Shown here one piece after another: positions 2,879 to 64,000 of a DNA stretch of 64,000 nucleotides. Location of the stretch: the NCBI GenBank assembly GCA_964497805.1, contig CAZCFB010000012.1, forward strand, positions 3,301 through 67,300, given 5' to 3'. Origin of the DNA: an uncultured Kofleriaceae bacterium. Lineage in GTDB: Bacteria; Myxococcota_A; Polyangia; GCA-2747355; CAZCFB01. The notes beneath the pieces are model-generated. The model made no database searches. It had not been told where the DNA came from and worked only from the letters and a program-made list of their open reading frames with translations. A program made the translations under genes and the position numbers. Positions within the stretch are counted from its first letter, which is position 1; each line of letters begins with the position of its first letter.

Positions 2879-4243
<1,365 letters not shown>

Positions 4244-9388: not shown

Positions 9389-11908
9389 ATGAAGCCAAGT
9401 CGCATTCCCAAACTGATCCCGGCCGCGGCCATCGCCGCCACGGTCATCCTCATCGCCGGCCTGATGATACCGGCCACTTCCCATGCCCAGTCCAGAGGTG
9501 GCAGGGGCGGGGGCCGGGCGGACGAAACCCGCTCAGGGGGCGCCGCCAAGGCGGAGAAGGAGGTCGCCGGCAGCGCGGGCGATCCTCTGGCCACCACGGT
9601 CACCACCACCACGGCCGGTGGGAAGATCAAGGTGGAGCCAGCCAAGCTGGAGTACAACGAGTGCCTTGGCCGTAAGGCCCGCCGGGCCGCGTACAAGTTC
9701 TCCCTGAACAAGGGCACCGAGCTGCTGGAGCTGGTGGAGTTGATCAGCAAGATGACCTGCAAGCGGTTCATCGTCTCGGAGACCCTGCGCGCCCAGAAGG
9801 TGACCATCATCTCGCCGGAGAAGATCACGGTGGAGGAGGCGTACAAGGCGTTCCTCAGCTCCCTGGACGTGATGGGGCTCACCGTGGTGCCGGCTGGCCG
9901 CTACCTGAAGATTGTCCAGGGGAACTGGGCCATCCAGGGCCCGATCAAGACCTTCGGCGACAAGCAGAAGGGGCGCACCCCCCTCACCGATGACGTGGTG
10001 ACGCAGATCATCCAGGTCAAGAACGTGGACGTAAACGAGATGCTGCTGGTGCTGAACAAGCTGAAGTCGCGTAACGGCGACATCACCGCTTACAAGCCCA
10101 GCAACTCTCTGATCATCACCGACAACGGCTACAACATCCGCCGCATGCTCTACCTGATCAAGGAGCTGGACCTGGAGTCCGAGGGGGAGAAGATCTGGGT
10201 GGTCCGTCTCAAGTACGCCGACCCGGACGAGGTGAACAAGATCCTGAGCCAGCTCTTCTCGGCCACGGGCAACGCGCGGCCCCAGGTGCGGGGGAGGCCG
10301 GGCAGGCAGCGGGACGACGCCAGCCAGGTGCGCGCCTCAAAGATCGTCTCCGACTCTGCCTCCAACTCCCTGATCATCGTTGCCAGCACCGGCTCGTTCA
10401 ACCGCATCGCCTCCCTGATCAAGAAGCTCGACGTGGAGGAGGACGCGGCCACGCAGAAGGTACATGTCTACTACCTGGAGAACGCCGACGCCGAGGACCT
10501 CTCCAACACCCTCGGCGCCCTCACGGGCACTTCGGGCGGCCGCAACGTACGCGGCCGGCGGCCAGCGCGGCGGCCCGGCGGCGGCCAGCAGGCGGCCACC
10601 CTGTTTGAGGGGGACGTCAAGATCAGCGCTGACAAGCCCACCAACTCCCTGGTCATCGTGGCCACCACCAAGGACTACCTGAACCTGCGCGGCGTGATCC
10701 AGAAGCTGGACATCCCGCGCCGGCAGGTGTTCGTGGAGGCGAGCATCCTCGAGATCAGCATGGACAACACGAAGAAGGTGGGCTTCGCCTACCACGGCGG
10801 CGGCGTGGCGGGGGAGGGGGACACCGAGTCCCTGATCTTCGGCGGCGTGGAGTCCTCGGACCTGAACTCCCTGCTGGTCAACCCCCTGGGCATGATGGGC
10901 CTGGCCGTGGGCGTGAGGGGCGCGGAGATCCAGGGGTCCGGGCAGCTGCTGGGCGTGGGCACCGACATCCCTGGCTTCGGCGTCATGTTCCAGGCGCTGC
11001 AGAACAACAGCGACGTGAACATCCTCTCCTCTCCTCACATCCTCACCACCGACAACGAGGAGGCGGAGATCACGGTGGGGCAGAACCTGCCGTTCCAGGG
11101 CGCCATGATGGGCGGCGGCTTCGGCGGGCTCGCAGGTGCGGCTGGCGCGGCTGGCGCTGCCGGCGGCGCGGCGGCGCTCTCCTCCTTCCTGCCCGGCGTC
11201 TCGGTGCAGCGCCAGGACGTGGCCCTGAAGATGAAGATCACCCCCCACGTCAACGAGAGCGAGATGGTGCGCCTTGAGCTGGAGCAGGAGGTCTCGGACA
11301 TCGTCTCCCAGAACTTCAACGGCATGGGGCCGGCCACCTCCAAGCGTTCGGCCAAGACGGTGGTGGTGGTGCGTGATCAGCAGACCGTCGTCATCGGCGG
11401 CCTCATGGGCAACCGGGTGCGCAACTCGGTGAGCAAGGTGCCGATCCTGGGCGACATCCCGATCCTGGGTTACCTGTTCAAGTACAAGAAGAAGACCACC
11501 GAGAAGACGAACCTGCTCATCGTGTTGACCCCGTACATCATCCGGGACCAGACCGACCTGCGGCGTATCCTGAAGAAGAAGATGGAGGAGCGGCGGGAGT
11601 TCATCGAGCGCTACACCAGCTTCAAGTACCACGAGATAACCGCCGACGTGGACTTCCGCCACAAGCGCGGCCTGCTTGCCGAGATCAACCGCGTGGCGGG
11701 CCAGGCCGAGCAGGAGGCCAAGCTGCTGGAGGAGGCGCGCAAGGCGTCGGAGCCGGAGGACGTGGAGCCGGTGGAGATGCCCACTGGCATGACCGTGACG
11801 CCGGTGAAGGGCAAGGGCACCAGGCGCAACCCGCGCCGGCAACCCGCCTCGGAGATTCGCCACCCGCCGCGGCCAGTTATCCGCGAGCGGCCCAGGCGGA
11901 TTCGCTAG
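9389..11908 (+). CDS. gspD: type II secretion system secretin GspD
   Basis: Signal peptide MKPSRIPKLIPAAAIAATVILIAG. N-domain repeats (NSLIITD, NSLIIVAS, NSLVIVAT). Secretin domain (VVIGGLM...VPILGDIPILGYLFKY). Start moved to ATG 9389, in frame with track ORF 9218. Confidence 0.9.
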   Translation: MKPSRIPKLIPAAAIAATVILIAGLMIPATSHAQSRGGRGGGRADETRSGGAAKAEKEVAGSAGDPLATTVTTTTAGGKIKVEPAKLEYNECLGRKARRAAYKFSLNKGTELLELVELISKMTCKRFIVSETLRAQKVTIISPEKITVEEAYKAFLSSLDVMGLTVVPAGRYLKIVQGNWAIQGPIKTFGDKQKGRTPLTDDVVTQIIQVKNVDVNEMLLVLNKLKSRNGDITAYKPSNSLIITDNGYNIRRMLYLIKELDLESEGEKIWVVRLKYADPDEVNKILSQLFSATGNARPQVRGRPGRQRDDASQVRASKIVSDSASNSLIIVASTGSFNRIASLIKKLDVEEDAATQKVHVYYLENADAEDLSNTLGALTGTSGGRNVRGRRPARRPGGGQQAATLFEGDVKISADKPTNSLVIVATTKDYLNLRGVIQKLDIPRRQVFVEASILEISMDNTKKVGFAYHGGGVAGEGDTESLIFGGVESSDLNSLLVNPLGMMGLAVGVRGAEIQGSGQLLGVGTDIPGFGVMFQALQNNSDVNILSSPHILTTDNEEAEITVGQNLPFQGAMMGGGFGGLAGAAGAAGAAGGAAALSSFLPGVSVQRQDVALKMKITPHVNESEMVRLELEQEVSDIVSQNFNGMGPATSKRSAKTVVVVRDQQTVVIGGLMGNRVRNSVSKVPILGDIPILGYLFKYKKKTTEKTNLLIVLTPYIIRDQTDLRRILKKKMEERREFIERYTSFKYHEITADVDFRHKRGLLAEINRVAGQAEQEAKLLEEARKASEPEDVEPVEMPTGMTVTPVKGKGTRRNPRRQPASEIRHPPRPVIRERPRRIR

Positions 11909-50425: not shown

Positions 50426-51490
50426 TCAAGCGGGCTCCACCCCCAGGCCGGGCAGCCATGGCAGGTGGAGTTCGCCCGCGCCGCTCACCGCCATGCCCCT
50501 GAAGGGGTCCTCTTCGATGAGCAGGTGCCCGTCCAGATCTGCCAGATCGCACAGCGGGGCCAGGTGGGCGGCGGCCGTGACGCCCAGGCTGCTCTCCACC
50601 ATGCAGCCGAGCATCACCTTGAGGCCGGCGTCCCGGGCGGCGTGGATGGCGCTGAGGGCAGGGGCCAGCCCGCCCAGCTTGCTCAGCTTGATGTTCACGC
50701 CGTCGGCCACCTGGGCCAGCCACGCCAGATCCTCCTCGGACTGGAAGGACTCGTCGGCCACCAGGGGCGGGGCGCCATCTCCGAGGAGGGAGCGCAATTC
50801 GCGCCAGCCCTCCAGGCCAGGCTCGGCCGGGATGGGCTGCTCCAGGAAGACCAGGTCCAGGGCGCGCATCTCCGAGACCGCGCGGGCTGCCTGCTCGGCT
50901 GTCCAGGCGCCGTTGGCGTCCACGCACAGGCGGCTGCCGGGGGCCTGCTCATGGGCCATACGCGCCAGCTCCAGGTCGCGCTCCAGGTCGCCGCTGCCCA
51001 GCTTCAACTTGAGCAAGGAGAAGCCGCTGGCCGCGATCACGCGCTCCCGGTAGCGGGCGTCGTCGCTGTCCATGGCGATGGTGAACGAGGTGCGCGGGCA
51101 CCTGTCGGGGTCAAGTCCCCAGAGCTGGTGCAAGGGGAGCCCCCTCCGGCGTGCCCAGATATCGTGCAGGGCCATGTCCAGGCCGGCCATGGCGGCGGGG
51201 GCCAGGGGGCGGCGCAGGCTCTGCAGGGCGCGCTCCGGATCCAGCGCGGCCGCCCCGGAGAGGTGCGAGAGCAGGCCCGGGTGCGCAAGCTCACGCTCGA
51301 GATCCGCGGCCGTGTCTCCCCGGTACGGGACCACCGCCACCTCCCCGTACCCTACAAGCAGCCCCCACTGGATGGTCACCAGGAGGTTGTCCCGCACCAG
51401 GGAGGTGCCGTGCGCGATGGCGAAGGGATCCCGCAGGGAGAGCTGGAGGGGGGTGACGGCGATGCGGGCGGCTGAACGGTCCGTGAGCAT
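50426..51490 (-). CDS. enolase-superfamily dipeptide epimerase (L-Ala-D/L-Glu epimerase-like)
   Basis: LKLKLG, CVDANGAW, LEQP, VADES and NIKLSKLGG catalytic and metal-ligand contexts. Start set at ATG 51490 (MLTDRSA...). The upstream 129 codons of the track ORF look non-coding. Confidence 0.8.
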   Translation of the reverse strand: MLTDRSAARIAVTPLQLSLRDPFAIAHGTSLVRDNLLVTIQWGLLVGYGEVAVVPYRGDTAADLERELAHPGLLSHLSGAAALDPERALQSLRRPLAPAAMAGLDMALHDIWARRRGLPLHQLWGLDPDRCPRTSFTIAMDSDDARYRERVIAASGFSLLKLKLGSGDLERDLELARMAHEQAPGSRLCVDANGAWTAEQAARAVSEMRALDLVFLEQPIPAEPGLEGWRELRSLLGDGAPPLVADESFQSEEDLAWLAQVADGVNIKLSKLGGLAPALSAIHAARDAGLKVMLGCMVESSLGVTAAAHLAPLCDLADLDGHLLIEEDPFRGMAVSGAGELHLPWLPGLGVEPA

Positions 51491-51518
51491 GGTATGGAAC
51501 AGTATAGACTTAACGCCC

Positions 51519-54500
51519 ATGCTCCGAACCCTCCTCGCGTGCACCATCCTCCTGGCCGCCTGCTCTGGCCCAACACGGGAGGTGCCGCCTGCCGGGCCGC
51601 CGGGGCCGCCGCCCTCCATCAGGGTGCTGCTCGTTGCCCAGGAACGGGAGGCCATGTTCCAGCGGGCCCCCGCCATCAACGCCTGGCTGGGGCGAGAGGG
51701 GATCCAGGTGTCGTCACACCGGTCGCTGGAGGACCTGACCCCGGCGCTGTTGCGGCCCTTCCATGTGGTGGTGCTGCACCAACACCGCCTGGCCCCAAGC
51801 CTGACTCCAGCTGTACGCCGCGGCCTGACCCTGCTGCGCGACCACGCGGCTGCAGGCGGTGGGCTGCTCGTGACCAAGGACCTGTACAGCAGGCGGGGCG
51901 CCGCCTTCTACCGGGCGTTGCTTTCACCCCTGGGCGCCGAGGTCCTCCAGGAGCAGCTCGTGGAGCGGGACCCGGGCTACACCTACCGCCTCAAGACCCT
52001 GGGCCCCGCGGCGAACCTGTTCGCCTGGACAGACGCCATGGCGGCCGGACACCCCGTCACCCTGGGCGTGAGAGGCCTCTACTACAGCGTGGGCCGCTGG
52101 GAGCCGGGGGAGCCGGGGAGCCTCCCCCTGAAGGTGAGCCGCGCCTGGACCGTGCTGGTGCGGGGGCGGCCCTCCGTGGTCAGCCTGGCGTCACGGCCCA
52201 CCGGCTTTGACCCCTCGGCAGACAACGCGGGCCCAGGGACCCACCGCGCCTCGCCGCCCCTGCTGGCCGTTCGCTCCCTGAAGCGGGGGCGGGTGGCGGT
52301 GTGGCCCACCCTGGCCAGCTTCACCTTGCTGGATGGCTTCTCCCCGGTGCTGGAGGGGGGGCTGGTCATGCGATCCACCCGGGCGGGGCGCCCCAGCGAC
52401 GGCGGGCGGTTGCTGGCCAACTTGCTCCGGTGGCTGGCGCCGGGGGAGCTCCCCGCCGGGGTGACCACCACAGTGCGCGGGCTCAAGGCCGCCACCACCC
52501 CAACCGCGAAGCCCCTCACCTGGGGGCGCCGGGTGGTCCCTGTTCCTGCCTCGGGGGCCCGGGCCTTCCGCGGGATCATCGGCGCCTTCAGCACCCTGTC
52601 CGGGGGGCGCTCAACCCCCGAGGAGCTCGTGGAAGCGGCGCGAGGGGCGGGCTACGACTTCATCGCCTTCGCAGAGGACCTGAGCGCGCTCAAGCGAGAG
52701 GGGTGGGAGCGGCTGGTTCGTCTCTGCCGCGCCGAATCCGATAGCCAGTTCCGCGCCGTGCCGGGCCTGCTTTACCGGGGCGCCGACAGCGACCCCTTCA
52801 TCGCCCTGGGCGAGATAGGCTTCCCCCCGGCGGCCTGGGCTGACCCGCTCGTCCCGGGCAAGAAGATCGCCAGCAACACCACCCTGCGCATGGCCCTTAA
52901 CCCGGTGCCGGCCATCATCCACCTGCCCCTGCCCGACAACCGGCGGCCGGCCAGGTTGCACGCCGCTTTTTCCGGCCATGCCCTGGAGGTGTGGCGCGGC
53001 GGCCCCCGGCTGGCCTGGGATCTCCAGGGGTACCTGGCCCTGCAACGGGAAGGCCTGGGCCTCTTCCCCACGGCGGTGCGCCTGGTGGACACGGGGGACC
53101 AGGTGACGGCAGCGGCCAGCAGCCCGGGCCTGCAGGCCTGGATCCGCGCCGACGGGCTGGGCACGCTGCTCCAGGGGGTGCAGGGGCTGCGTGGGGCAGG
53201 TGGGAGGTATCAACGCCTGGGCTTCGCCTCTTCCGGGCCCGAGGTGGTGGCCTTCTCCGTGGCCAACTGGGGCACCAGCGATCTGGCCCGGTCCGGGCGT
53301 CACCGCTTCCGGCTCAAGCTGCGGGTGCGCTCCACGGTGGGGCTCAAGGAGGTGCGCGTGCTGGACGGCGGGCGCACATGGAGGCGGTTCCTGCCCCGCG
53401 GCGCCAGGACCTTCTCCGCCACGGTGGACGGCAACCATGACCGGCAGCACTCCTTCGTCTTGCAGGTGACCGACACCCGGGGAGGGCGGGCCGTGTCATG
53501 GGCCCGCAACACGGCGGTTCAGGAGCTGAGCCTGGGCACCAGCACGGATAACCTCAACGACGTGGGGCCCATGGGCAAGGTCGCCCTGGACCGGGGCCAG
53601 ATCCGCCTGCGCGGCACCGAACAAGCCACCCGGGCCATCTCGCCCGGGGTGTTCCGGCGGCTGGCGGGGTTGGTCGCGGCGGAGCCGCTCACGGGCCAAC
53701 GCCTGGCCTCGCCTGGCCGCCACGCCTCCATGCAGCGGTCCCTGTTGGTGGGGCGCTTCGGCGCGGTCACCGAGCACTCCCTTGCTCGCCTCTGGAAGGG
53801 GCCGGGCCTGCCAGGCATCGCCCACGCCACGCCGGTGGTGGACAACCCGGTCTACGGCGGCGTGGTGCGGCGTACGCGCCTTGCCCGCCTGCCCCCCGGC
53901 CCGGAGCTCGAGGTGCGTGAGTTCAAGCTGCGGCTGAAGCGTCCGGTGCGCATGCTGCAAACCCCCGGGGTGGTGTTGGCCGAGAGCGCCAGCTGGGGCC
54001 TGAGGTCGGGGGAGCTGGACCATGTCCTCCTGCCGGGCGGGCAGGGGAGCGTCCGCCGCTGGACGCCGGATGGACCCCGAACCCAGGTTGTGGAGTTGGC
54101 CCCGGGCGCCTTCGTGGCTGCCTACCCCCAGCCCACCGCGGTGTTCGCCCTGGACCGGCCGCTGCAGGCCCTGGTCCGCCGGAAACCCGGGCCCGGGGGC
54201 GCCACCTTGATTCAGGTGGGCCTGGGGCGCAAGGGGGAGACCTTGCCCGCAGGCACGGTGTTGCGCGCCCGCCTGGGGTTGCTGACCCTGCCCAGGGCCA
54301 CTCAGGGAACCTACCCCTGGCTGCCCACGCACCGGAGCCTCTGGACCGGCCCGGGGCTCATGCTCCAGGTGCGCGACGGGCTGGGCCTGGCCGGACCTCC
54401 GGGGTACCTGATCCAGCCCACGGTGGGGCGGGTTGCGGGCTCCGGCATGCTCCTGCGCCTGAGCCCGGACGAGGGCGGCTTCTCGGCCCGCGTGGGCAGG

Positions 54501-54977
54501 AGTGAGCTCCCCCTGCCGGTGCCTGCCCTCCTGTCTGGCCTGAACCCGGGCTGGAGCGCCGTGCTCCTGTACCGGGGGAAAAACCGGATCCTCACCGCGG
54601 AGTGGCCGCCCGGCTGGTTCCGCGGGGCGCCTTCCCACCGCCGGTTTGTGCGCCTGCGCCGTTTCCAGGATCCAATCTACCCGGTGGGCGTTTCGGAGGA
54701 TGGCGTGGCCCTGGCCCAGCTCGACCTGCACGACGAGGATCGCGACCTCTTCCTGGGGCACCCCGTTGTCTGCGATCGGCCCGACATAAAGCTCACCTTT
54801 GTGCATGATCAGGCCCGCGATGAGGCCAGCGTGGAGGTGCACAACCCCACGGATCTCGCCGCCACGGTCCTTGTGCGGCCGGGCAAGGGCTTCCAGCTGT
54901 TCGGGGACTTCACTCGGAAAGTTAAAGTGGATTCTGGGGCTTCTGTTGTCTTTAGATTACGGAAGCCTGTGCGCTAA
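51519..54977 (+). CDS. 1152-aa hypothetical lipoprotein
   Basis: MLRTLLACTILLAAC lipobox at ATG 51519, in frame with track ORF start 51072. No confident domain. The segment GGRSTPEELVEAARGAGYDFIAFAED resembles a degenerate PHP-domain start. Confidence 0.6.
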   Translation: MLRTLLACTILLAACSGPTREVPPAGPPGPPPSIRVLLVAQEREAMFQRAPAINAWLGREGIQVSSHRSLEDLTPALLRPFHVVVLHQHRLAPSLTPAVRRGLTLLRDHAAAGGGLLVTKDLYSRRGAAFYRALLSPLGAEVLQEQLVERDPGYTYRLKTLGPAANLFAWTDAMAAGHPVTLGVRGLYYSVGRWEPGEPGSLPLKVSRAWTVLVRGRPSVVSLASRPTGFDPSADNAGPGTHRASPPLLAVRSLKRGRVAVWPTLASFTLLDGFSPVLEGGLVMRSTRAGRPSDGGRLLANLLRWLAPGELPAGVTTTVRGLKAATTPTAKPLTWGRRVVPVPASGARAFRGIIGAFSTLSGGRSTPEELVEAARGAGYDFIAFAEDLSALKREGWERLVRLCRAESDSQFRAVPGLLYRGADSDPFIALGEIGFPPAAWADPLVPGKKIASNTTLRMALNPVPAIIHLPLPDNRRPARLHAAFSGHALEVWRGGPRLAWDLQGYLALQREGLGLFPTAVRLVDTGDQVTAAASSPGLQAWIRADGLGTLLQGVQGLRGAGGRYQRLGFASSGPEVVAFSVANWGTSDLARSGRHRFRLKLRVRSTVGLKEVRVLDGGRTWRRFLPRGARTFSATVDGNHDRQHSFVLQVTDTRGGRAVSWARNTAVQELSLGTSTDNLNDVGPMGKVALDRGQIRLRGTEQATRAISPGVFRRLAGLVAAEPLTGQRLASPGRHASMQRSLLVGRFGAVTEHSLARLWKGPGLPGIAHATPVVDNPVYGGVVRRTRLARLPPGPELEVREFKLRLKRPVRMLQTPGVVLAESASWGLRSGELDHVLLPGGQGSVRRWTPDGPRTQVVELAPGAFVAAYPQPTAVFALDRPLQALVRRKPGPGGATLIQVGLGRKGETLPAGTVLRARLGLLTLPRATQGTYPWLPTHRSLWTGPGLMLQVRDGLGLAGPPGYLIQPTVGRVAGSGMLLRLSPDEGGFSARVGRSELPLPVPALLSGLNPGWSAVLLYRGKNRILTAEWPPGWFRGAPSHRRFVRLRRFQDPIYPVGVSEDGVALAQLDLHDEDRDLFLGHPVVCDRPDIKLTFVHDQARDEASVEVHNPTDLAATVLVRPGKGFQLFGDFTRKVKVDSGASVVFRLRKPVR

Positions 54978-56401
54978 GCGTTCGCCTGATTTGTGAACAT
55001 CACGTTGAACACCAGAGGCACGGCCCGCAGGTACTTTGTCATGTCGGAGGGGCGCCTGGCATGCTTCAGGTTGCGCCACATGAGCTTGGGGCGCAGGTAG
55101 AAGCGCCGGTAGAAGCGGCGGTGCGCAGCCTGCAACTCCTCGGCGGTGAGGCCCTCCGGGATGAACACCGGCTGGAAGAACGAGTACATCTGATCGTCGT
55201 GAGAAACCAGGGTCCCGTGCTTCTCGCACTCCTCGAACAGGGGCGTGCCGCGCAGGGGCGTGGTGATCTGGATGGTGGCATCGGTGAGGGGCAGGGAGAG
55301 GGCGAAGTCCAGGGTGTCCTGCATGGTCTGCCGGGTCTCGCCGAGGTGGCCGAGCATGAAGAAGGCCTTCACCTGGAAGCCGATCTTGGCGGCCGCGGTG
55401 ACGGTCTTACGGAACTGGGCCTTGGAGATCCCCTTGCGGATGCGCTTGAGGATCTCGTCGTTGCCGCTCTCGATGGCGATGCGGATCTTCCAGCAGCCCA
55501 GCGCCTTCATCCGGCGCAGGCTCTTCTCGTCCAGCAGGTTGGCCCGGCAGGAGCAGGTCCAGGTCACCGGCGGGGGGGAGGCCTCCATGGCGTCCAACAT
55601 GGCCAGCAGGCGCCGCTTGTTGGGGGTGAAGGTGGAGTCCACGATGGCCACATCCTTGATGCCGTAATCACGGGCCAGGATGTGCATCTCCTCCACGACC
55701 TTCTCCGGCGAGCGGGCGCGGTAGCTCTTCCCGAAGGTGGCCTTGTCGCAAAAGATGCAGGAGAAGGGGCAACCGCGGCTGCCGATGAGGCTGGCCTTGG
55801 GCAGCCTGCGCTCGTCGTTGGGCAGGGGGCGGTAGCGCGAAAGGTCCAGCAGGTGCCGGGCCGGAAAGGGCAGGGCGTCCAGGTCCTCCACCGGGGGGCG
55901 GAAGGGCGCGTAGTGGACCTCGCCGTCCGGGGCGGTGACCACGCCGGGGATCTCGGAGACCTCCTCGCCGCGTTCCAGCGCCTGCACCACCTCCAGCAGG
56001 GTGTACTCCCCCTCGCCCCTCACGCCGAAGGCGAAGTCCGGGTAGCGCACGAGGAAGTCGGGGTGGGCGTTGAAGTGGGGGCCGCCCACGCAGATGGGCA
56101 CGCCGGGCAGGGCGGCCTTGATCGCGCTGGCCCCCTGCACGGCCACGTCATGGTACGAGGTGGTGGCGGTGAAGCCCACCAGGTCCGGCTTCAGGTCGGC
56201 GGCCATGGGCCCCAGGTCAACGGCGGTCATGCCGTGCACCGGGCTGTCGGTGACAGTGACCCGGTGCCCTGCCTCCTCGAGCACGGCGGCCAGGGAGAGC
56301 AGGCCCAGGGGCGGCGAGTTGAAGAAGAGGTTCTCGATGATCGCCCCGAGCTTGGTGGGCTCGTCGCGCTTGACCGGTGGATTAATTAGCCAGATATGCA
56401 T
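54974..56401 (-). CDS. B12-binding-domain radical SAM enzyme (class B)
   Basis: N-terminal Rossmann-like PPLGLLSLAAVLEEAGHRVTVTD. Radical SAM cluster motif SRGCPFSCIFC (CxxxCxxC). Confidence 0.85.
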   Translation of the reverse strand: MHIWLINPPVKRDEPTKLGAIIENLFFNSPPLGLLSLAAVLEEAGHRVTVTDSPVHGMTAVDLGPMAADLKPDLVGFTATTSYHDVAVQGASAIKAALPGVPICVGGPHFNAHPDFLVRYPDFAFGVRGEGEYTLLEVVQALERGEEVSEIPGVVTAPDGEVHYAPFRPPVEDLDALPFPARHLLDLSRYRPLPNDERRLPKASLIGSRGCPFSCIFCDKATFGKSYRARSPEKVVEEMHILARDYGIKDVAIVDSTFTPNKRRLLAMLDAMEASPPPVTWTCSCRANLLDEKSLRRMKALGCWKIRIAIESGNDEILKRIRKGISKAQFRKTVTAAAKIGFQVKAFFMLGHLGETRQTMQDTLDFALSLPLTDATIQITTPLRGTPLFEECEKHGTLVSHDDQMYSFFQPVFIPEGLTAEELQAAHRRFYRRFYLRPKLMWRNLKHARRPSDMTKYLRAVPLVFNVMFTNQANA

Positions 56402-56414
56402 TCTGCTTAGTCCT

Positions 56415-57941
56415 TCACTGGATCAGCCGCCTCCGGTAGGAGGCGTACTCCTTGAGCTTGAACCGGGAGAGCTCCCCGCGCAGCAACATCTGGGCGGCGA
56501 CCTGCCCAAGCTTGACGAAGTTGGCCGCCTCAGCGGCCAGGCGCACGGGCGTGGGGTTTTCGCGCAGGGCCTCGACCTTGCTCAGGGCGCGCAGCAGGCC
56601 CCGGGGGACGAACCCCTTGGAGGCCAGGGAGATGAGGCTGGCGTAGAAGGTGTCCTCCGCCGGCCGCGGGTAGTCCAGGGTGAGGCGGAACTGCTCGAAC
56701 GACTTGGTGGCCCGGCCCTCCACATCGTCCTCGGTGACCAGCCCGGCCGCCAGCAACGTGCGCGCGGTCTGGGAGCGGGGGAAGACCACCAGGGAGTAGA
56801 TGAACAGGTTGAATGGGCGCGGCAACTCCAGCAGCAGGTCGAGCATGGCCTGCTTCTCGGCCCGGCTCTCCATGGGGTTATCCAGGATGATGTCGTAGGT
56901 CACGGCCACGCCCAGGTCATGGAGCTGATGGGCCAGATCCAGGGTGCGGGCGTTGGAGCCCTTGCGCGCGTACTGCTTCTCCACCTCCTCCTCGGAGCCG
57001 CCCTGGATGCCCACCTGCACATGGATCAGCCCGGTGTCGCGCAGGAGCTTGAGGGTGCGCGGCTTGGCGGCCAGGGGGTTGAGCAGGATGTCGAAGGGGA
57101 GGCCCACCCGGGCGGGGTACTCCCGGGCGAACTCGTCCAACCAGGCCCGGGGGAAGACGAAGGTGTCGTCGTCGAAGCGCACCTTGCGCAGGCCGGGGCG
57201 GTCGCGCAGGGCCTGCTCCAGCTCGGTCATCACCGAGGCCACGGTGCGGGTGCGGTGGTAGCGCCCCAGGCCCTCGTAGATCTCGCGGTACTGGCTGTTG
57301 TAGCAGAAGGCGCAGCCGTAGGGGCAGCCGCGGGAGGCGAAGATCCGGTAGAGGGTGTTGTCCTCCTGGGGGTCGCCGCGGGTGAGCTTGTCGTCCTCGA
57401 TAAAGGCCGTATCCAGCTGGCCCAGGCGGTCCCAGGGCAGACCGTCCAGGTCCTGAATCAGGGGTCGCGGCGGGTTCTTCTGTACCGCTCCATCCACGTC
57501 GCGGATCCAGAGGTTCGGGATGTCGCGCACCTCATCGCCCTTTCCGATGGCGTCGGCCAGATCGATGATGGGCAGCTCTCCCTCGCCGATGCACACCGAG
57601 TCCGCGTGATCGATGCAGTCGTCGGGCACGATGGTGGGGTGCACCCCGCCGAGCACGATGTGGGCCTGGGGCAGCACCCGGCGGATGCGCGCGCACAGGT
57701 CGCGCACCAGGCCGATGTATGGCGTGCCGAAGCCGATGCCCACCACGGCCGGCTGTCTTTCTGTGAGGTAGGCGTCGAACAGCTCCAATTCGCGGTCGCT
57801 GGGCAGCTGCACGTCGTTGTTGCGCCACCCCTTGAGGTAGAGCACCGGCGCCTCGTGGCCCGCCCGCTCCAGCGCAGCGGCCAGCAGGCGGATCCCCTGG
57901 TTCTGGTAGCCGTAGGGCGTGACGAGCAGGGCGCGGGTCAA
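56415..57941 (-). CDS. B12-binding-domain radical SAM enzyme (class B), divergent
   Basis: GIRLLAAALERAGHEAPVL N-domain. SRGCPYGCAFC motif. 508 aa. Confidence 0.8.
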   Translation of the reverse strand: MTRALLVTPYGYQNQGIRLLAAALERAGHEAPVLYLKGWRNNDVQLPSDRELELFDAYLTERQPAVVGIGFGTPYIGLVRDLCARIRRVLPQAHIVLGGVHPTIVPDDCIDHADSVCIGEGELPIIDLADAIGKGDEVRDIPNLWIRDVDGAVQKNPPRPLIQDLDGLPWDRLGQLDTAFIEDDKLTRGDPQEDNTLYRIFASRGCPYGCAFCYNSQYREIYEGLGRYHRTRTVASVMTELEQALRDRPGLRKVRFDDDTFVFPRAWLDEFAREYPARVGLPFDILLNPLAAKPRTLKLLRDTGLIHVQVGIQGGSEEEVEKQYARKGSNARTLDLAHQLHDLGVAVTYDIILDNPMESRAEKQAMLDLLLELPRPFNLFIYSLVVFPRSQTARTLLAAGLVTEDDVEGRATKSFEQFRLTLDYPRPAEDTFYASLISLASKGFVPRGLLRALSKVEALRENPTPVRLAAEAANFVKLGQVAAQMLLRGELSRFKLKEYASYRRRLIQ

Positions 57942-59332
57942 CGTGGCCCCCCGCTCGTGAGCATGCGCAGGCCGGCGCGGGCCTTGCTCATCAGGCCCCC
58001 GCGGCGCAGCTGGCTCAGCACCACCGAGGGGCGCAGGTAGAAGGACCTGTACGCCCTGTCCAGCAGGTCGAACAGCTGGTCATGGCTCAGGTGCTCGTCC
58101 CAGATGGGCGCCTCGAAGTCGGGGCGCGGGTCCAGGGCGAAGTCGCGCCACAGGCCGGGCGCCACCAGGCCGCGGTTCTCGGCCATGCGCAGCAGGGGGG
58201 TGCCCGGGTAGAGGGTCAGCACGTTGAACAGGGCGTAGTCCGGCTTCAGGTCGCGGGCGAAGTCGATGGTGCGCTGCACGTCCGCCCGGGTGCGCTCGTT
58301 GGGCAGCCCGATCATGAAGTACGCCATGGTGGGCATGCCCACCTTGCGGGCGGCGGCGAAGGAGTCCTGGATCTGCTTGAGGGTGGCCCGCTTGCCCAGC
58401 ACCTTGAGCCCCTCCGGGGTGCAGGTTTCCACCCCGATCTGCATGCGGGTGCAGCCGGCGCGGAGCATCATGGCCAGGTTCTCCTCGCTGAGGCCCAGGG
58501 CGGCGGTGCGGCAGGACCAGGGGGGCAGGTGGGGGCGCGCGGACAGCTCCTCGCACAGGGCGGCCAGGCGGGAGCCGGCGATGGGGAAGGTGTCGTCCAC
58601 GAAGTAGATGTGCTGGGCGCCCAGGGCGGCGCACGCCTCCATCTCCCGCACGATGGCGTCCACATCCCGGTGGCGCCAGCGCCCGCGCGGCGTGGAGCAG
58701 AAGGTGCACTTGTGGGGGCAGCCGCGGCTGCTCATCATGGTGGCGAAGATGACGTCCTCGCCGGCCAGGCCGCGGTAGAGCCGCCACACCAGGCGGTCGC
58801 GCCGGGGCGTGGGGAGCTCGTCGACCGGCGGCAGGAGCACCTCTGGACCGAGGCCCAGGTCTGCCGGGCCGAGCACGCCGGGATCCGGCGCCTGGCCATC
58901 TTGCACCAGGTCGGCCAGGGCGGGCAGGGTGAGCTCGCCCTCGCCGGGCAGCACGTAATCCACGCCCTCCAGGGTGGCGGTCTCCTCGGCGAACAGCTCG
59001 GTGTGGGGGCCGCCGATGACCACCCTGGCCCCGGGGTAGGCTTGCCGGGCCGTGGCCACCGCGGCCATTACGGATGGCAGGTTCGGGGTGAGCGCGGTGA
59101 CGCCCACCAGGCCGGGAGGGGCGTCGTGGCGGTCCTGGGAGATGGTGCGGGCCAGGGCCAGTGGGATATTACCGTCCACCAGGTCCACCCGGTGTCGCCC
59201 GCTCTGTTCGGCGGCTGCCTGGAGGTACATCAGGCCCAGGGGCGGGTACGGCCCGGACTGGTCGGCCGCGTGGTCGCCAGCCTCGGAGCCCAGGGCCTCG
59301 GTCTGGCCCGGCTTGATGAGCAGGATCCTCAT
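57938..59332 (-). CDS. B12-binding-domain radical SAM enzyme (class B)
   Basis: PPLGLMYLQAAAEQSGRHRVDLVD N-domain. SRGCPHKCTFC motif. 4-bp overlaps with both neighbours. Confidence 0.85.
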   Translation of the reverse strand: MRILLIKPGQTEALGSEAGDHAADQSGPYPPLGLMYLQAAAEQSGRHRVDLVDGNIPLALARTISQDRHDAPPGLVGVTALTPNLPSVMAAVATARQAYPGARVVIGGPHTELFAEETATLEGVDYVLPGEGELTLPALADLVQDGQAPDPGVLGPADLGLGPEVLLPPVDELPTPRRDRLVWRLYRGLAGEDVIFATMMSSRGCPHKCTFCSTPRGRWRHRDVDAIVREMEACAALGAQHIYFVDDTFPIAGSRLAALCEELSARPHLPPWSCRTAALGLSEENLAMMLRAGCTRMQIGVETCTPEGLKVLGKRATLKQIQDSFAAARKVGMPTMAYFMIGLPNERTRADVQRTIDFARDLKPDYALFNVLTLYPGTPLLRMAENRGLVAPGLWRDFALDPRPDFEAPIWDEHLSHDQLFDLLDRAYRSFYLRPSVVLSQLRRGGLMSKARAGLRMLTSGGPR

Positions 59333-60444
59333 GCCCTGGCCTCCATGAGCAGGCGGTCCACGGCGTCCGTATCAACTGGCCCGCGCGGGACCTGGGCCTT
59401 GAGCTGGTTGCGGACCATCTCCAGGGTGCTCATGGGGTCAAGCACCATGAAGCCCACCTCGGCCCAGCAGGGCCGGAAGCACCCCTCGCAGCTGCTGGCC
59501 ATGTCCCGCACCTCGTCCAGGTAGCCGCGCGTCCCGAACACCGCGGGCAGGTCGCTGTAGTGGATGCCCCGCTCGCTGTCCTCGTAGGCGTGGCACGGGG
59601 AGACATGGCCGTCCGGGCCGATGGAGAGGAATAGCTCGCCCGCGCGGCAGGGCCACTGGGCCGAGCCGGTGGAGAGGTAGCGCACCGAGCCCTCAAGGAA
59701 GGCCGAGGAGTTGATGATGCGGGCCCCCTTGCGCTTGCGGCTGCGGATCTCGCGGTACACGGCGCGCAGAGGCTCTCGGTGTTCGTCGGCGAAGCGCAGG
59801 GTGCCGTCACGGGAGTAGAAGCGGTGCTCGCCTCCGCCCTGCTCGCCCAGGTGCACCGGGATGATGGAGGCGAAGAAGCCGATGGCCTCGGCCAGGTCCA
59901 GGACCCTGAGCACCTCGTGGTAGTTCTTGGGGGAGACCACCACGTTGAGCAGGGGCATGGATCCAGTGGGGGGGAGGGCCTGGGCCAGTGCCACCAGGTT
60001 CTCCATGCGCTTGTTGAAGGTGCCCTTGGCCGAGTCCAGGTCTTCCTGCACCTCGGGGACCAGGGAGTCCACCGAGAAGGAGAAGTCACGCACGCCGGCG
60101 TCGATGAGCGCGCCGGCGGCCCTGGGCGTCATGGCCACGCCGTTGGTAAGCACGCGAACCTGGATGCCATGATTCATGAAGGCCCGGGCGACCTGCGGCA
60201 GGTCCTTGCGCAGGACCGGCTCGCCCCCGCCCAGGCTCACCTGCACGGCGCCCAGGTCGGCCATAACCCCGGCCATCTCCCGCACCTGAGCCGTGGTCAG
60301 CTCCGACGCGGAGGTGTCCCTCTGCCAGATGACGCAGGAGCGGCACTTGAGGTTGCAGCGGCTCGAAACCCCATAGTGCACGTAGATGGGGCGATCTCTC
60401 AGTACGAGCCCCCTGGCTAGCCGTAGATATGGTGAAAATTTCAT
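59329..60444 (-). CDS. radical SAM enzyme with SPASM-type C-terminal auxiliary-cluster domain
   Basis: SSRCNLKCRSC at residues 28-38. C-terminal CRAG...GPDGHVSPCH...SSCEGCFRPC, a 7-Cys SPASM pattern. Confidence 0.8.
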   Translation of the reverse strand: MKFSPYLRLARGLVLRDRPIYVHYGVSSRCNLKCRSCVIWQRDTSASELTTAQVREMAGVMADLGAVQVSLGGGEPVLRKDLPQVARAFMNHGIQVRVLTNGVAMTPRAAGALIDAGVRDFSFSVDSLVPEVQEDLDSAKGTFNKRMENLVALAQALPPTGSMPLLNVVVSPKNYHEVLRVLDLAEAIGFFASIIPVHLGEQGGGEHRFYSRDGTLRFADEHREPLRAVYREIRSRKRKGARIINSSAFLEGSVRYLSTGSAQWPCRAGELFLSIGPDGHVSPCHAYEDSERGIHYSDLPAVFGTRGYLDEVRDMASSCEGCFRPCWAEVGFMVLDPMSTLEMVRNQLKAQVPRGPVDTDAVDRLLMEARA

Positions 60445-60479
60445 GGATTCAACCGCATGGCGGGGTCTGCCGCGAGAAC

Positions 60480-60491
60480 TATACTATAGTA
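60480..60491. promoter_or_regulatory. AT-rich palindrome in the divergent promoter region of the radical-enzyme island
   Basis: TATACTATAGTA contains the perfect 10-bp palindrome TACTATAGTA. It reads TATACT on plus and TACTAT on minus, giving -10-like hexamers for both divergent operons. Confidence 0.35.
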
Positions 60492-60565
60492 CCCGCCCGC
60501 GCTGGCAGGGCAACTCAGCTCACGGTAGGCCCACCGCCAGTAAGGCTTAGCCCCGAGGAGACTCC

Positions 60566-61945
60566 ATGTCCACCTCCACAAACGAGGAATCCCTTACGAC
60601 CCCCACTCCACCCACGTCGGTCCTGCGCGAAACCCGGGGAACGTGCCCCGAGTGCATCAAGCCAGTGCCGGCGCGGGTAATCGAGGAGGCAGGGAGCGTC
60701 TACCTGGAGAAGCGCTGCCCTGAGCACGGCGACAACCGCGTGCTGCTGTCCGAGAGCCCGGCCTATTTCAAGGAGCTGATGGGCTACTACTTCGACGTGA
60801 TGCCGGAGAGCCTGCCGCAGAAAGACTACATCCTGCGCCTGACCCACCGCTGCAACATGGCGTGCCCCATCTGCCTGGCCAGCTCGGACCAGTTCAAGGA
60901 GTCCGAGATGCAGCTGCAGCAGGTGCGGGAGCTCATGGATCTGCGCCCGCGCGGCATGAAGCTGGACCTCATGGGCGCGGAGCCGACCCTCTGGCCCGAG
61001 CTGGAGCAGCTGATCCGCGAGGCCAGCGGGCGGGGGCACATCACGGCCCTGCACACCAACGGCATCAACATCGCCCGGGACGAGGACCTGGAGCGCCTCC
61101 TGGACGCCGGCCTGGACGAGGTGCACCTGCAGTTCGACGGGTTCGAGGACGAGCACGACATGGTGCTGCGGGGGCAGCCCATGGGCGCCATCCGGCGCAA
61201 GATCCTCAAGACGCTGGAGCGGCACGACGTGGCCACCGACCTGGTCGTGACCCTGATGCAGGGGCTCAACGAGGACCAGATGTTGCCGGTGCTCGACTTC
61301 GCGGCGGCCAACACCTTCGTCAAGGAGGTGTTCTACCTGGGCTGCCGGCGCCTGGGCCGCGGGCGTGACGACTTCGCCACCGCTACCCTGGCCCCGGACC
61401 AGGTCATCAGCGAGGCGGAGGAGCGCTCCGGGGGCATGATCAACCGCGACGACCTGCGGGGATTCAACAAGCTCTACTTCGCCATGCTCTCCATGTTCAA
61501 GCTGCGCAAGTGTTTCTACATCCACCACTACATGGTCTTGCGTGACGGGAAGGGCGGGTACAGGCCGGTGTCCGAGTACATCGACCTGCCTTACCTGGAG
61601 CCGCATCTTGATCGCTACCGCGCGGACTTCCAGAGCAACCGCAAGGCGGCCGCGGCCCGGCTGCTGCCCCACATCGGCATCGCCATGGCCCGCAAGAAGG
61701 GCACCCGCCTGGTGATTGACGGCGCCATCCTGCCGGTGCTGCTCAAGATGGGCTTCAACCTGTCCAAGATCCGCAGCCGCATCATCCTCATCGGCTTCAT
61801 CTCGGCCTGCGACCCCTGGATGCACGACGAGCAGGTGGCGGCCAACTGCGGCAAGGGCGAGTTCTCCACCGACCTGGGCGTCCACCCCGCCGGCGCCGAC
61901 GCCAACGTCGGGCGTGAGCGCCTGCACATGGAGGGCGAGCAGTAA
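60566..61945 (+). CDS. radical SAM enzyme with N-terminal Zn-ribbon (COG1964-like; possibly Tes/GDGT-MAS-related)
   Basis: CPECIKPVPARVIEEAGSVYLEKRCPEHG ribbon. THRCNMACPIC radical SAM motif. C-terminal IGFISACDPWMHDEQVAANCGKG. The radical SAM call is firm. The family placement is from memory only. Confidence 0.75.
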   Translation: MSTSTNEESLTTPTPPTSVLRETRGTCPECIKPVPARVIEEAGSVYLEKRCPEHGDNRVLLSESPAYFKELMGYYFDVMPESLPQKDYILRLTHRCNMACPICLASSDQFKESEMQLQQVRELMDLRPRGMKLDLMGAEPTLWPELEQLIREASGRGHITALHTNGINIARDEDLERLLDAGLDEVHLQFDGFEDEHDMVLRGQPMGAIRRKILKTLERHDVATDLVVTLMQGLNEDQMLPVLDFAAANTFVKEVFYLGCRRLGRGRDDFATATLAPDQVISEAEERSGGMINRDDLRGFNKLYFAMLSMFKLRKCFYIHHYMVLRDGKGGYRPVSEYIDLPYLEPHLDRYRADFQSNRKAAAARLLPHIGIAMARKKGTRLVIDGAILPVLLKMGFNLSKIRSRIILIGFISACDPWMHDEQVAANCGKGEFSTDLGVHPAGADANVGRERLHMEGEQ

Positions 61946-61974: not shown

Positions 61975-64000
61975 ATGACGCCTGACCCTGCCCTGGATCC
62001 TCGCGTCCACCGCATGAAGCAGCGGCTGCTATCGGCGCCGTACGAGATCTGCATGGCCCGCGCCCGGTACTTCACCGAGGCGTACCGCCGCACCGAGGGG
62101 CTGGATCCTTGCCTGCGCAACGCCCACGCCCTGCGCCACACCCTGGCGCGGCAGCGCATCCGCATCGAGCCCGACGAGGGCCTGGCGGGCAGCAAGACCG
62201 AGAGGTTCCTGGCCGGGCCGCTCTCGGTGGAGCGGGGGGACTTCCTGCGTTCGGTGCAGCTTGAGATGGAGATGCTGGGGCAGAAGCAGCGCCCATTCCT
62301 GATCTCCGAGGAGGACCGCGGGACCTTTTACGATGAGGTGCTGCCCTACTGGGACGGCCGCACGGTGCGTGACGCCAAGGCGCGCAAGTGGCTCGAGCGG
62401 GGCATCTGTGAGCGGCCGCGCTCCCCGCGGGCGCATGTGCGGGCGGCGATTGATGGCGTACGGCTCCTGCGCTACCTGGGCCACGAGCCACTGGCCAAGG
62501 CCTTCGGGCAAAGCATGAAGGGCAAGCTCTCCGTGCGGCGGCTGCGCAACCTGCACGCCATGCGGGGCGAGTTCGCCTACAACAACCCCACGCCCGCCGT
62601 CTACTGTCTCGACGTCCAGGGGCACCTCTGCCTCGGGGTGGACAAGGTGGTGGAGCAGGGCATGGAGGCTCTGGCCACGCAGGCCCGGGCGCGGCTCGGG
62701 CGCCTTGAGACGGAGGAGCCTGGAAACCGGCGGGGCGCGGCCTTCCTGGAGGCGGTGGTGATCAGCCTGGAGGCGGCCATGGCCTACGCCGAGCGGTTCG
62801 CGGAGCTTGCCGGCGAGATGGCCGCGGCGGCCACCGATCCGGACGAGCGTGAGCGGCTCCGCCACATGGCCACGGCATGCAGGAGGGTGCCGCGCCGGCG
62901 CCCGCGTACCTTTCAAGAGGCGCTCCAGGCGGCGTGGATGGCCAGCGTGGTGGGGGAGATCCAGTACGGCACCATGGATGTGTTCGCCCAGGGCAGGGCA
63001 GACCAGTTCCTCTGGCCGTTCCTGAAGCAGGACCTGGAGACAGGGACCATCACCCGGGAGCGGGCCGTGGCCCTGGTGCAGGAGTACCTGCTCAAGCTAT
63101 CGGCCAACGTGCAGCCCATCCCCGAGGTGGGTATGGAGACCAACGGCGTCCTCGGCAATAGCCAGCATGTGGTGGTCATCGGCGGGCTCACGCCGGCGGG
63201 CGAGGACGGGGAGAACGAGCTGTCCCGGGTCTTCCTGGACGCCTACGCCGGCATGGGCGGGACGGTGAACCAGCTCTGCGTGAGGCTCCACCCGGGCTCC
63301 TCGCCAGCCTTCCTGGGCCGGGCCGTCGCCGCCTTCCGACGCACCAACGGCATCGCCTTTTATAACGACGAGGCCATCGTGGCGGCCCTGGAGGCGGACG
63401 GGCTGGAGACCGGCGCGGCCCGGGACTACTGCATCATCGGCTGCGTGGAAACCAGCGGACAGTCGGACACCCACGGCTGCCCGGGGGGGCATGACCTTGT
63501 GCTGCCCGCTGCGTTGGTGCTGGCGCTCACGGGCGGACGCTTCCCGCCCCCGGCGCCGGGCCAGCAGGACGGGGTGGCCAAGGGGCCGCGGCGGCTCACC
63601 AGCTTCGACCAGGTCATGGAGGCGTTTGAGGGGCAACTGGCCCACCAGATCGCTGTCCTGGTGGCGGCCACGGCTGCCAAGGACGAGGCCCACCGGGAGA
63701 TCCTGCCCGCGCCCTACGTCTCCGCCCTGATGGATGATTGCATCGAGCGGGCCAGGGACCTCACCGACGGAGGCGCGCGCCACGACTTCACCGGGGTGGC
63801 GGTGCGGGGGCTGGCCACCACGGTGGACTCCCTGCTCGCCGTGGAGGCCCTGGTCTTCCAGCGCGGCGAGCTGAGCCTGGAGGCCCTGGTGCGGGCCATG
63901 CTGGGCAACTTTCACGGGGAGGAGGCCCTGCGCCAGCAGCTCCTGGAGCAGGCGCCAAAGTATGGCGCCGGGGATCCCCACGCGGACGCGCTGGCCCGGC
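61975..64000 (+). CDS. glycyl radical enzyme, PFL2/eliminase-type (3' end outside the window)
   Basis: My own translation from ATG 61975 is open through 63999. It is not in the ORF track because no stop lies in the window. N-terminal RMKQRLLSAPYEICMARARYFTEAY. Thiyl loop DYCIIGCVETSG (Cys codon 63442-63444). APKYGAGDPHAD resembles the GRE PKYGNDDD motif. Confidence 0.8.
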   Translation, partial: MTPDPALDPRVHRMKQRLLSAPYEICMARARYFTEAYRRTEGLDPCLRNAHALRHTLARQRIRIEPDEGLAGSKTERFLAGPLSVERGDFLRSVQLEMEMLGQKQRPFLISEEDRGTFYDEVLPYWDGRTVRDAKARKWLERGICERPRSPRAHVRAAIDGVRLLRYLGHEPLAKAFGQSMKGKLSVRRLRNLHAMRGEFAYNNPTPAVYCLDVQGHLCLGVDKVVEQGMEALATQARARLGRLETEEPGNRRGAAFLEAVVISLEAAMAYAERFAELAGEMAAAATDPDERERLRHMATACRRVPRRRPRTFQEALQAAWMASVVGEIQYGTMDVFAQGRADQFLWPFLKQDLETGTITRERAVALVQEYLLKLSANVQPIPEVGMETNGVLGNSQHVVVIGGLTPAGEDGENELSRVFLDAYAGMGGTVNQLCVRLHPGSSPAFLGRAVAAFRRTNGIAFYNDEAIVAALEADGLETGAARDYCIIGCVETSGQSDTHGCPGGHDLVLPAALVLALTGGRFPPPAPGQQDGVAKGPRRLTSFDQVMEAFEGQLAHQIAVLVAATAAKDEAHREILPAPYVSALMDDCIERARDLTDGGARHDFTGVAVRGLATTVDSLLAVEALVFQRGELSLEALVRAMLGNFHGEEALRQQLLEQAPKYGAGDPHADALAR

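Follow-up and report, generated by a model that had tools for sequence, protein, structure and literature searches.

Does the zinc-ribbon radical S-adenosylmethionine (SAM) enzyme encoded near the end of a 64,000-nucleotide stretch of DNA from an uncultured Kofleriaceae bacterium (assembly GCA_964497805.1; the whole analysed stretch is hereafter the window) belong to the tetraether synthase (Tes/GDGT-MAS) family, as a first-pass annotation had proposed? Branched tetraether lipids are widely used as climate proxies, and the bacterial producers and enzymes are largely unknown, especially in anoxic settings; in most Acidobacteria, these lipids are explained by neither Mss nor the recognised bacterial Tes homologues (PMC13159169, PMC8941075). 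GDGT-MAS/Tes is the only characterised member of the zinc-ribbon radical SAM superfamily. Structural modelling assigns the enzyme (hereafter the target) to the same superfamily, with the GDGT-MAS/Tes fold. On its sequence, however, it represents a separate bacterial branch, predicted to lack one of the four metal centres of GDGT-MAS, and is not callable as a tetraether synthase. By analogy with GDGT-MAS, the reading we favour, with a probability of roughly 0.5, is Tes-like C–H activation on a hydrophobic, lipid-like substrate.

A conserved gene with the predicted fold of GDGT-MAS

The window corresponds to positions 3301-67300 of contig C12 in a 61% complete genome (G000:C12:3301-67300), and reading was continued to the contig end (L009). 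The gene and the parts of its product are listed below.

60566..61945, forward strand: zinc-ribbon radical SAM enzyme (target), 459 aa (open reading frame (ORF); Pfam PF23545 and PF04055; AlphaFold2; Foldseek; tree)
60620..60751, forward strand: rubredoxin-like zinc-ribbon domain, residues 19-62 (Pfam Zn_ribbon_HMPTM; regular expression; four beta strands in the AlphaFold2 model)
60851..60874, forward strand: radical SAM cluster motif C96-X3-C100-X2-C103 (invariant in 25/25 family members)
61511..61858, forward strand: C-terminal domain with invariant C316 (RKC), C415 (ACDP) and C428 (NCGKG) (invariant alignment columns)

The ORF comprises 459 open codons and is preceded, immediately 5' of the ATG, by the Shine-Dalgarno-like sequence GAGGAG. 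The three elements that had first drawn attention to it (CPxC-x20-CPxHG, a CxxxCxxC core and a quoted C-terminal stretch) were all recovered from the translation by regular expression. CPEC-x20-CPEHG occupied residues 27-55, CNMACPIC, the sole CX3CX2C of the protein, residues 96-103, and IGFISACDPWMHDEQVAANCGKG residues 409-431. Pfam assigned Zn_ribbon_HMPTM (PF23545) to residues 19-62 (60 bits against a cut-off of 27) and Radical_SAM (PF04055) to residues 92-246 (66 bits). With the fold match to 7TOM given below, the HMPTM-type zinc ribbon, the radical SAM core and the GDGT-MAS-type C-terminal domain were all present, in that order. The gene is real and its motifs are not due to chance, because the gene is conserved: at E<=1e-5, a word-indexed protein search returned 377 proteins, among them full-length relatives sharing 40-86% identity. 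All 377 came from metagenomes or metagenome-assembled genomes (MAGs), and their names were absent or generic.

Among solved structures, GDGT-MAS (7TOL) was the only strong sequence match to the target alone (E 1.9e-30). When the search was repeated with a profile of 25 family members, the match to 7TOL strengthened to E 1.1e-57 and covered chain residues 22-475, extending into the C-terminal domain. The AlphaFold2 model, built on the family alignment, had a predicted local distance difference test score (pLDDT) of 87.7 and a predicted template modelling (TM) score of 0.88. In Foldseek, 7TOM/7TOL were the sole full-length matches to this model (TM score 0.79 normalised to the query and 0.73 to the target structure, ~490 columns, 21-22% identity), and the runner-up, MoaA, reached a TM score of 0.38 on the radical SAM core alone. 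The target thus shares with GDGT-MAS/Tes (Methanocaldococcus jannaschii MJ0619; 7TOL, 7TOM; NF045702) the same four-part layout and the same order of elements.

The target passed neither of the two relevant equivalog models, TrsS or Tes. Against the Tes model (NF045702), which was exceeded by three archaeal control genomes, it scored 124.2 bits and did not reach the curated cut-off of 450. Its best NCBIfam match was to TrsS (NF045646), itself functionally uncharacterised, at 158.3 bits, mostly over the radical SAM core and far below the cut-off of 490.

A separate and sharply bounded bacterial clade

The position of the target was determined with a tree of 66 sequences (IQ-TREE; support as Shimodaira-Hasegawa-like approximate likelihood ratio test, SH-aLRT). 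The set comprised 25 members of the family, the 7TOL fragment in the form output by HMMER (the single characterised and single archaeal Tes sequence), a paralogue from the window's own genome, 12 Tes homologues of bacterial origin with NF045702 scores of 310-356 bits, 25 other superfamily members of the same phylum and two outgroup radical SAM proteins. The target family formed one clade (support 100) with a small sister clade (support 97). GDGT-MAS and the 310-356-bit homologues were found in a separate clade of 27 rows (support 98). Joining the target family with GDGT-MAS and those homologues, a grouping named after the tree had been seen, was rejected by the approximately unbiased (AU) test (p 0.005).

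An exhaustive HMMER scan of 1.84 billion representatives returned 145 proteins at E<=1e-30 and 1296 at E<=1e-10. In the GTDB species genomes, 212 stretches encoded a relative, and all locus counts below refer to the best 80 of these 212. The 80 stretches derived from Myxococcota, Acidobacteriota (Thermoanaerobaculia, Holophagae), Omnitrophota, Verrucomicrobiota, Lentisphaerota, Planctomycetota, Chloroflexota, Gemmatimonadota, Elusimicrobiota, Bacillota and others, placing the clade in at least 10 phyla, and several NCBI taxon labels of clade carriers (e.g. Rickettsiales, Enterobacterales) look unreliable. Within the window's own phylum the clade is sharply bounded, because 24 of 301 sampled genomes carried a member at >=410 bits and the next best score was 229 bits. 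No paper describing the clade was found in the literature searched, and, as suggested by its low pairwise scores, it was probably missed by published surveys that used BLASTP at E<1e-50.

Bacterial Tes homologues as such are known, though unconfirmed: they have been proposed as candidates for the synthesis of brGDGTs (branched glycerol dialkyl glycerol tetraethers) (PMC8941075; also PMC11868695), and an InterPro network of Lloyd et al. contained functionally uncharacterised homologues from bacteria (PMC9433317). The homologues of Zeng et al. 2022 (PMC8941075) are, like the target, bacterial, uncharacterised members of the superfamily, but in our tree bacterial Tes homologues grouped with GDGT-MAS, unlike the target family. 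Those detected in the window's class (L104-L115; G215, G300, G230 and others) were ~580-640 aa long, scored 310-356 bits to NF045702 and stood nearer to GDGT-MAS in the tree than any other bacterial proteins. They occurred in 17/23 sampled genomes of one family (4-11 Mb), and a simple regular expression found neither the standard zinc ribbon nor a second CX3CX2C in them. These homologues and the target family did not overlap: none of the 18 sampled genomes of the class with Tes homologues carried the target family, and none of the 23 other carriers of the target family had Tes homologues. These genomes are related and do not represent independent observations, so this is a pattern only. In the window's own genome, no protein exceeded the Tes cut-off, and the Zn_ribbon_HMPTM domain occurred just once.

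Radical SAM genes are unusually abundant in that genome (contigs C5, C8, C13, C56, C77, C84, C88 and C101). The core of the Tes model was matched at E<=1e-5 by at least 27 stretches of the 61% complete assembly, and there were many class-B paralogues, several of them arrayed. A paralogue of the target (429 aa; L011 6879-8168, reverse strand; G000:C8 ~24.9-26.2 kb) shared ~32% identity over the core and had degenerate zinc-ribbon ligands. Together with adjoining genes for a 501-aa class-B radical SAM enzyme and a 571-aa thiamine-diphosphate enzyme, it makes up a second, related locus of radical enzymes. Elsewhere, one or two N-terminal hemerythrin domains were fused to clade members or near relatives (P0122, P0124, P0152, P0201, P0215, P0232), which may serve oxygen or iron sensing or the shielding of an oxygen-labile enzyme. 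In a related clade, P0153 combined a class-B radical SAM protein and a zinc-ribbon radical SAM protein in one chain, a fusion that counts in favour of the reading we prefer.

Three predicted metal centres instead of four

The radical SAM cluster is one of four metal centres in GDGT-MAS (PMC9433317, PMC13459092). Its rubredoxin-like iron is held by C9X2C12X20C33X2H36 (PMC9433317), its N-terminal auxiliary cluster ([Fe4S4]N) by C73, C77, C80 and a His, and its C-terminal cluster ([Fe4S4]C) by three Cys and a labile Met439 (PMC9433317, PMC13459092). In the target, the putative zinc-ribbon ligands C27, C30, C51 and H54 (CX2CX20CX2H) were nearly invariant among the 25 family members and identical in spacing to those of GDGT-MAS, so that the rubredoxin-like ligands, one of the checks suggested by the first-pass annotation, were recovered in full. 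The CX3CX2C of the radical SAM core was likewise retained. In contrast, the [Fe4S4]N motif was missing and a short Cys-free linker (residues 79-86) occupied its place. All 25 family members had a single CX3CX2C, whereas GDGT-MAS and many bacterial proteins of the Tes clade had two, 25 residues apart.

The helical C-terminal domain resembled that of GDGT-MAS, with C316 aligning to chain residue C358 and C428 to chain residue C475. No counterpart of Met439 was present. We infer from the invariant columns that C316, C415 and C428 are putative ligands of a site-differentiated C-terminal [4Fe-4S] cluster, three-Cys as in GDGT-MAS but rearranged, for which the invariant D416 or H321 would be possible fourth ligands. 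By analogy, the loss of [Fe4S4]N would not exclude Tes-like chemistry, because in GDGT-MAS it is the C-terminal cluster that is implicated in catalysis, no role has been assigned to the remaining auxiliary centres and a Met439 variant retains activity (PMC9433317).

Taken together, the family assignment of the first-pass annotation held in part. Its wider portion, a shared superfamily and fold, was borne out (E 1.1e-57, TM score 0.79). [quoted passage not shown] Therefore, the target is not placed in the Tes family, and the superfamily and fold assignment stands. What is newly delimited is a clade with the Tes fold and three predicted metal centres. Its repeated association with class-B radical SAM genes, in at least eight phyla, provides a compact gene set.

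Proposed chemistry

Building on the gene, motifs, fold, clade and synteny, which were observed directly, we infer which cofactors are bound, which chemistry is performed and that the substrate is a lipid, as follows. By homology, the cluster bound by C96, C100 and C103 would cleave SAM, and the resulting 5'-deoxyadenosyl radical would abstract hydrogen at an unactivated sp3 carbon of the substrate. This substrate, hydrophobic and lipid-like, would sit in a pocket between the core and the helical C-terminal domain. The predicted C-terminal [4Fe-4S] cluster (C316, C415, C428) would then handle the substrate radical, leading to a C–C bond or possibly a C–S bond; in GDGT-MAS, a carbon–sulfur adduct forms before the C–C bond (PMC9433317, PMC13459092). 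The target would thus represent a trimmed GDGT-MAS, with three metal centres instead of four. It would often act as part of a multi-enzyme radical tailoring module with class-B enzymes and a 371-aa SPASM-like radical SAM enzyme, joined in most other lineages by a 336-aa radical SAM enzyme and a flavin adenine dinucleotide (FAD) oxidoreductase. Should the substrate not be a membrane lipid, the clade would still reveal the metal centres, among the four of GDGT-MAS, that such radical chemistry can do without.

Recurrent radical SAM partners

The locus consists of two divergent operons, of which the one opposite the target encodes four radical SAM enzymes separated by junctions of -4, -4 and +13 bp.

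60445..60565, no strand: intergenic region between the divergent operons, 121 bp (ORF map)
59329..60444, reverse strand: rSAM371, radical SAM enzyme, 371 aa, with a Cys-rich SPASM-like C-terminal tail, first gene of the divergent operon (Pfam Radical_SAM)
57938..59332, reverse strand: class-B (B12-binding) radical SAM enzyme, 464 aa (Pfam; NCBIfam BchE, rSAM_ladder_B12 and HpnJ, all below cut-off)
56415..57941, reverse strand: class-B radical SAM enzyme, 508 aa (Pfam B12-binding and Radical_SAM; NCBIfam)
54974..56401, reverse strand: class-B radical SAM enzyme, 475 aa, HpnJ/BchE/ApyD-like (Pfam; NCBIfam, below all cut-offs)

B12-binding and Radical_SAM domains were found by Pfam in each of the three class-B proteins, in agreement with their first-pass description, and their link with the target proved real and recurring across phyla. 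The best NCBIfam matches of rSAM371 were PqqE, AhbD and MoaA, each below cut-off. Its orthologues adjoined family members in Myxococcota, Planctomycetota, Omnitrophota and Chloroflexota, and orthologues of the 508-aa class-B enzyme (40-67% identity) stood beside family members in several phyla. The two closest relatives, whose orthologues share 86% and 80% identity with the target, kept all four radical SAM genes, the target and, from the operon of the target, the LPG_synthase_TM, 209-aa and 492-aa genes.

Across the 80 loci, a 336-aa radical SAM gene (rSAM336) occurred in 33-34, an FAD amine-oxidase-family gene directly upstream of the family member, often overlapping it, in 28-29, class-B radical SAM genes in 27-28 and rSAM371 orthologues in ~14 by best assignment. 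Of the 37 loci with >=5 kb of flanking sequence on both sides, 20 had at least one of these four partners (class-B, rSAM371, rSAM336 or FAD oxidoreductase) no more than 10 kb away. Partner synteny extended over eight phyla, namely Myxococcota, Acidobacteriota, Planctomycetota, Omnitrophota, Chloroflexota, Gemmatimonadota, Elusimicrobiota and Vulcanimicrobiota. A different arrangement was found in Verrucomicrobiota, Lentisphaerota and related lineages, in which a Peptidase_U32-family gene followed by a gene for a ~270-aa protein with no Pfam match lay directly 3' of the family member (18/80 loci; e.g. L039, L042, L046, L048, L049). The Peptidase_U32 family includes the oxygen-independent hydroxylases UbiU/UbiV.

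Competing explanations for the substrate and reaction

Several observations weigh against Tes-like chemistry on a lipid-like substrate. The loop that contacts 5'-deoxyadenosine in the Tes clade, FQPxSFxGR, is replaced by EVF[FY]LGCRxLGR in the target family; C415 (ACDP) is new, with no Cys counterpart in the Tes clade; the conserved 'C-x-Y-N' Cys position of that clade is lost; and a Tyr found four residues past the last aligned Cys in bacterial Tes-clade sequences is absent (Tyr459 of GDGT-MAS lies past the portion of the 7TOL sequence compared). Because the active-site loop is replaced and the set of Cys changed, the chemistry of the target may differ from that of GDGT-MAS. At the genomic level, all carriers of the clade that were found are uncultured organisms, and 34/80 loci had none of the reference partners nearby and no conservation of the surrounding genes. 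Neighbours in related loci included sugar-modifying genes (DegT, weak GT-C-like (glycosyltransferase) matches, Wzy_C), which would be as compatible with a glycoconjugate as with a plain membrane lipid. Furthermore, neither an HGD-D (PlsA/Ger-type) gene nor a hopene cyclase was found in the window's genome, weak evidence given its completeness of 61%.

The best-surviving rival, possible but clearly less probable than the favoured reading, is a substrate other than the tail of a membrane lipid, with the target as one of several tailoring enzymes in a cluster. [quoted passage not shown] An abundance of class-B and SPASM radical SAM enzymes in one cluster is a typical mark of RiPP and natural-product pathways, and the 475-aa class-B enzyme scored 190 bits to the RiPP enzyme ApyD, about level with HpnJ and BchE. 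One related locus carried a type III polyketide synthase, two enoyl-CoA hydratases and a PEMT-like methyltransferase; the DegT aminotransferase, Wzy_C and GT-C-like matches of other loci and the U32-family pair downstream of the family member in 18 loci point the same way. Against a peptide substrate, the 121-bp intergenic region contained no ORF of >=20 aa that might encode a precursor, and no small precursor-like ORF was found in the tight junctions either. The only full-length fold match is a lipid-binding enzyme, and the gene often stands alone in unrelated neighbourhoods, for which a bulk cellular substrate is a better fit than a cluster-specific metabolite.

A functional tetraether or membrane-spanning lipid synthase, coupling two fatty-acyl or alkyl tails end to end to give diabolic/iso-diabolic acid or brGDGT-type lipids to which the class-B partners add methyls and rings, is improbable, although it has evidence in its favour. 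The GDGT-MAS fold is shared, C-terminal cluster domain included, and the set of SPASM-type and class-B partners mirrors the archaeal Tes/Gms/Grs/methylase toolkit (PMC13459092). The family was found in uncultured Acidobacteriota, Planctomycetota, Myxococcota and Omnitrophota; in Black Sea MAGs, bacterial Tes homologues were reported from phyla including Acidobacteriota and Planctomycetota, and carriers of Mss include Planctomycetota, Myxococcota and Omnitrophota (PMC11868695). The separation of the target family and Tes homologues between genomes (0/23, 0/18) would fit functional replacement, subject to the non-independence of those genomes, and iso-diabolic acid in most Acidobacteria is not explained by the known Mss/Tes homologues (PMC13159169). 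Set against this are the position of the target outside the Tes clade and far below its cut-off, the missing [Fe4S4]N and several missing Tes-clade signatures, the lack of an ether-lipid gene (HGD-D) in the 61% complete genome and the sugar-modifying neighbours of related loci. The enzyme Mss (Thermotoga maritima Tmari_0825; PMC13159169) offers a partial parallel, as it too is a radical SAM enzyme, anaerobic and thought to couple two lipid tails, but it probably differs from the target in architecture. As indirect evidence, the T. maritima control genome had no Zn_ribbon_HMPTM match and no match to the Tes model at E<=1e-40, and no Tes homologue was found there in published work either (PMC13159169).

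A more ambitious version of the same idea, and a slightly less probable one, is that the clade and its class-B and SPASM-like partners constitute the missing machinery for membrane-spanning lipids of the brGDGT type or the branched glycerol monoalkyl glycerol tetraether (brGMGT) type in anaerobic uncultured bacteria, namely Acidobacteriota (e.g. Thermoanaerobaculia, Holophagae), Myxococcota, Planctomycetota and Omnitrophota. The zinc-ribbon enzyme would then form the tail-to-tail bond and the partners would supply methyls, rings or cross-links.

A lineage-specific insert in the operon of the target

The operon of the target runs, on the forward strand, from the target through a glycyl radical enzyme (GRE), its activase, a 606-aa polytopic membrane protein, an LPG_synthase_TM protein and a 209-aa Cys-rich lipoprotein to a 492-aa protein. 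The GRE and its activase extend beyond the window (L009 276-3555; G000:C12:65275-68554).

61975..64000, on to G000:C12:67818, forward strand: glycyl radical enzyme (GRE), 848 aa (Pfam PFL-like and Gly_radical)
L009 2827-3555, forward strand: GRE activase, 242 aa (TIGR02494 219.6 bits, above the cut-off of 174)

The GRE is of the PFL2/dehydratase type (TIGR01774 514 bits, below the cut-off of 678). Neither it nor its activase was present in any of the 80 related loci or beside either of the two closest orthologues (86% and 80% identity). The pair sits between the target and the 606-aa gene, and the sequence just 5' of the latter is conserved between the window's genome and the 86% relative. GC content at third codon positions (GC3) of the pair, 0.89-0.91, is near that of the neighbouring genes. 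Because it is absent from these 82 related loci, the GRE pair is a lineage-specific insert outside the conserved module.

These observations bear on the suggestion that the target activates the GRE encoded 29 bp downstream. It lies directly upstream of that gene on the same strand, and several homologues are named 'pyruvate-formate lyase-activating enzyme' by the Joint Genome Institute (JGI). However, a canonical 242-aa activase (TIGR02494, 219.6 bits against 174) directly follows the GRE, no GRE accompanies the target family in the 80 related loci or in the two loci of its closest orthologues, and the best 25 of the target's 41 NCBIfam matches included no activase model except a weak match to NrdG2 (42 bits). 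With a separate canonical activase and no conserved pairing with a GRE, this role is effectively refuted. Least credible of all is a class-D radical SAM pterin methylase (7,8-dihydro-6-hydroxymethylpterin dimethyltransferase), the name given by JGI to P0007, P0075 and P0077 and echoed by a Pfam domain named after HMPTM, as the founding member MJ0619 has been re-assigned as GDGT-MAS, its pterin methylase activity was not reproducible (PMC9433317) and no methanopterin pathway genes were seen in the neighbourhood of the target. The legacy names of homologues (pterin methylase, pyruvate formate-lyase (PFL) activase and MoaA) are corrected accordingly.

Other features of the locus

Further GRE loci were present in the window's genome on contigs C16, C6 and C32. 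The spacer after the GRE activase (L009 ~3556-3590) contained four tandem copies of CCGTTTC, and the matching spacer of the 80% relative (L102 ~11390-11470) contained ~five copies of a different, ATGACAGGTGGGG-like 13-mer.

Among the remaining genes of the operon, the flippase-like LPG_synthase_TM gene was found here, in both close relatives and in one Verrucomicrobia locus, a membrane context that speaks for the favoured reading. The 606-aa membrane protein had no Pfam match even at E<=5, and BLASTP did not relate it to the 560-640-aa proteins, weakly GT-C-like, that are encoded in related loci. The 492-aa protein encoded by the last gene (L009 7087-8565, forward strand) had no Pfam or NCBIfam match. 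Its model (pLDDT 90.7) showed a GT-A glycosyltransferase fold, closest to mannosylglycerate synthase (TM score 0.70-0.72, normalised to the matched structure). This family stands alone, with no zinc-ribbon radical SAM gene, in the cultured Desulfacinum hydrothermale, Desulfosoma caldarium and Thermodesulforhabdus norvegica, and as it occurs alone in these cultured sulfate reducers it says little about the target.

On the other side of the locus, a large ORF with no Pfam match (window 51072-54977, forward strand; ~1150 aa from the likely start) is convergent with the class-B operon, and its conserved counterparts in the two close relatives, of 1147 and 1175 aa, occupy the corresponding position.

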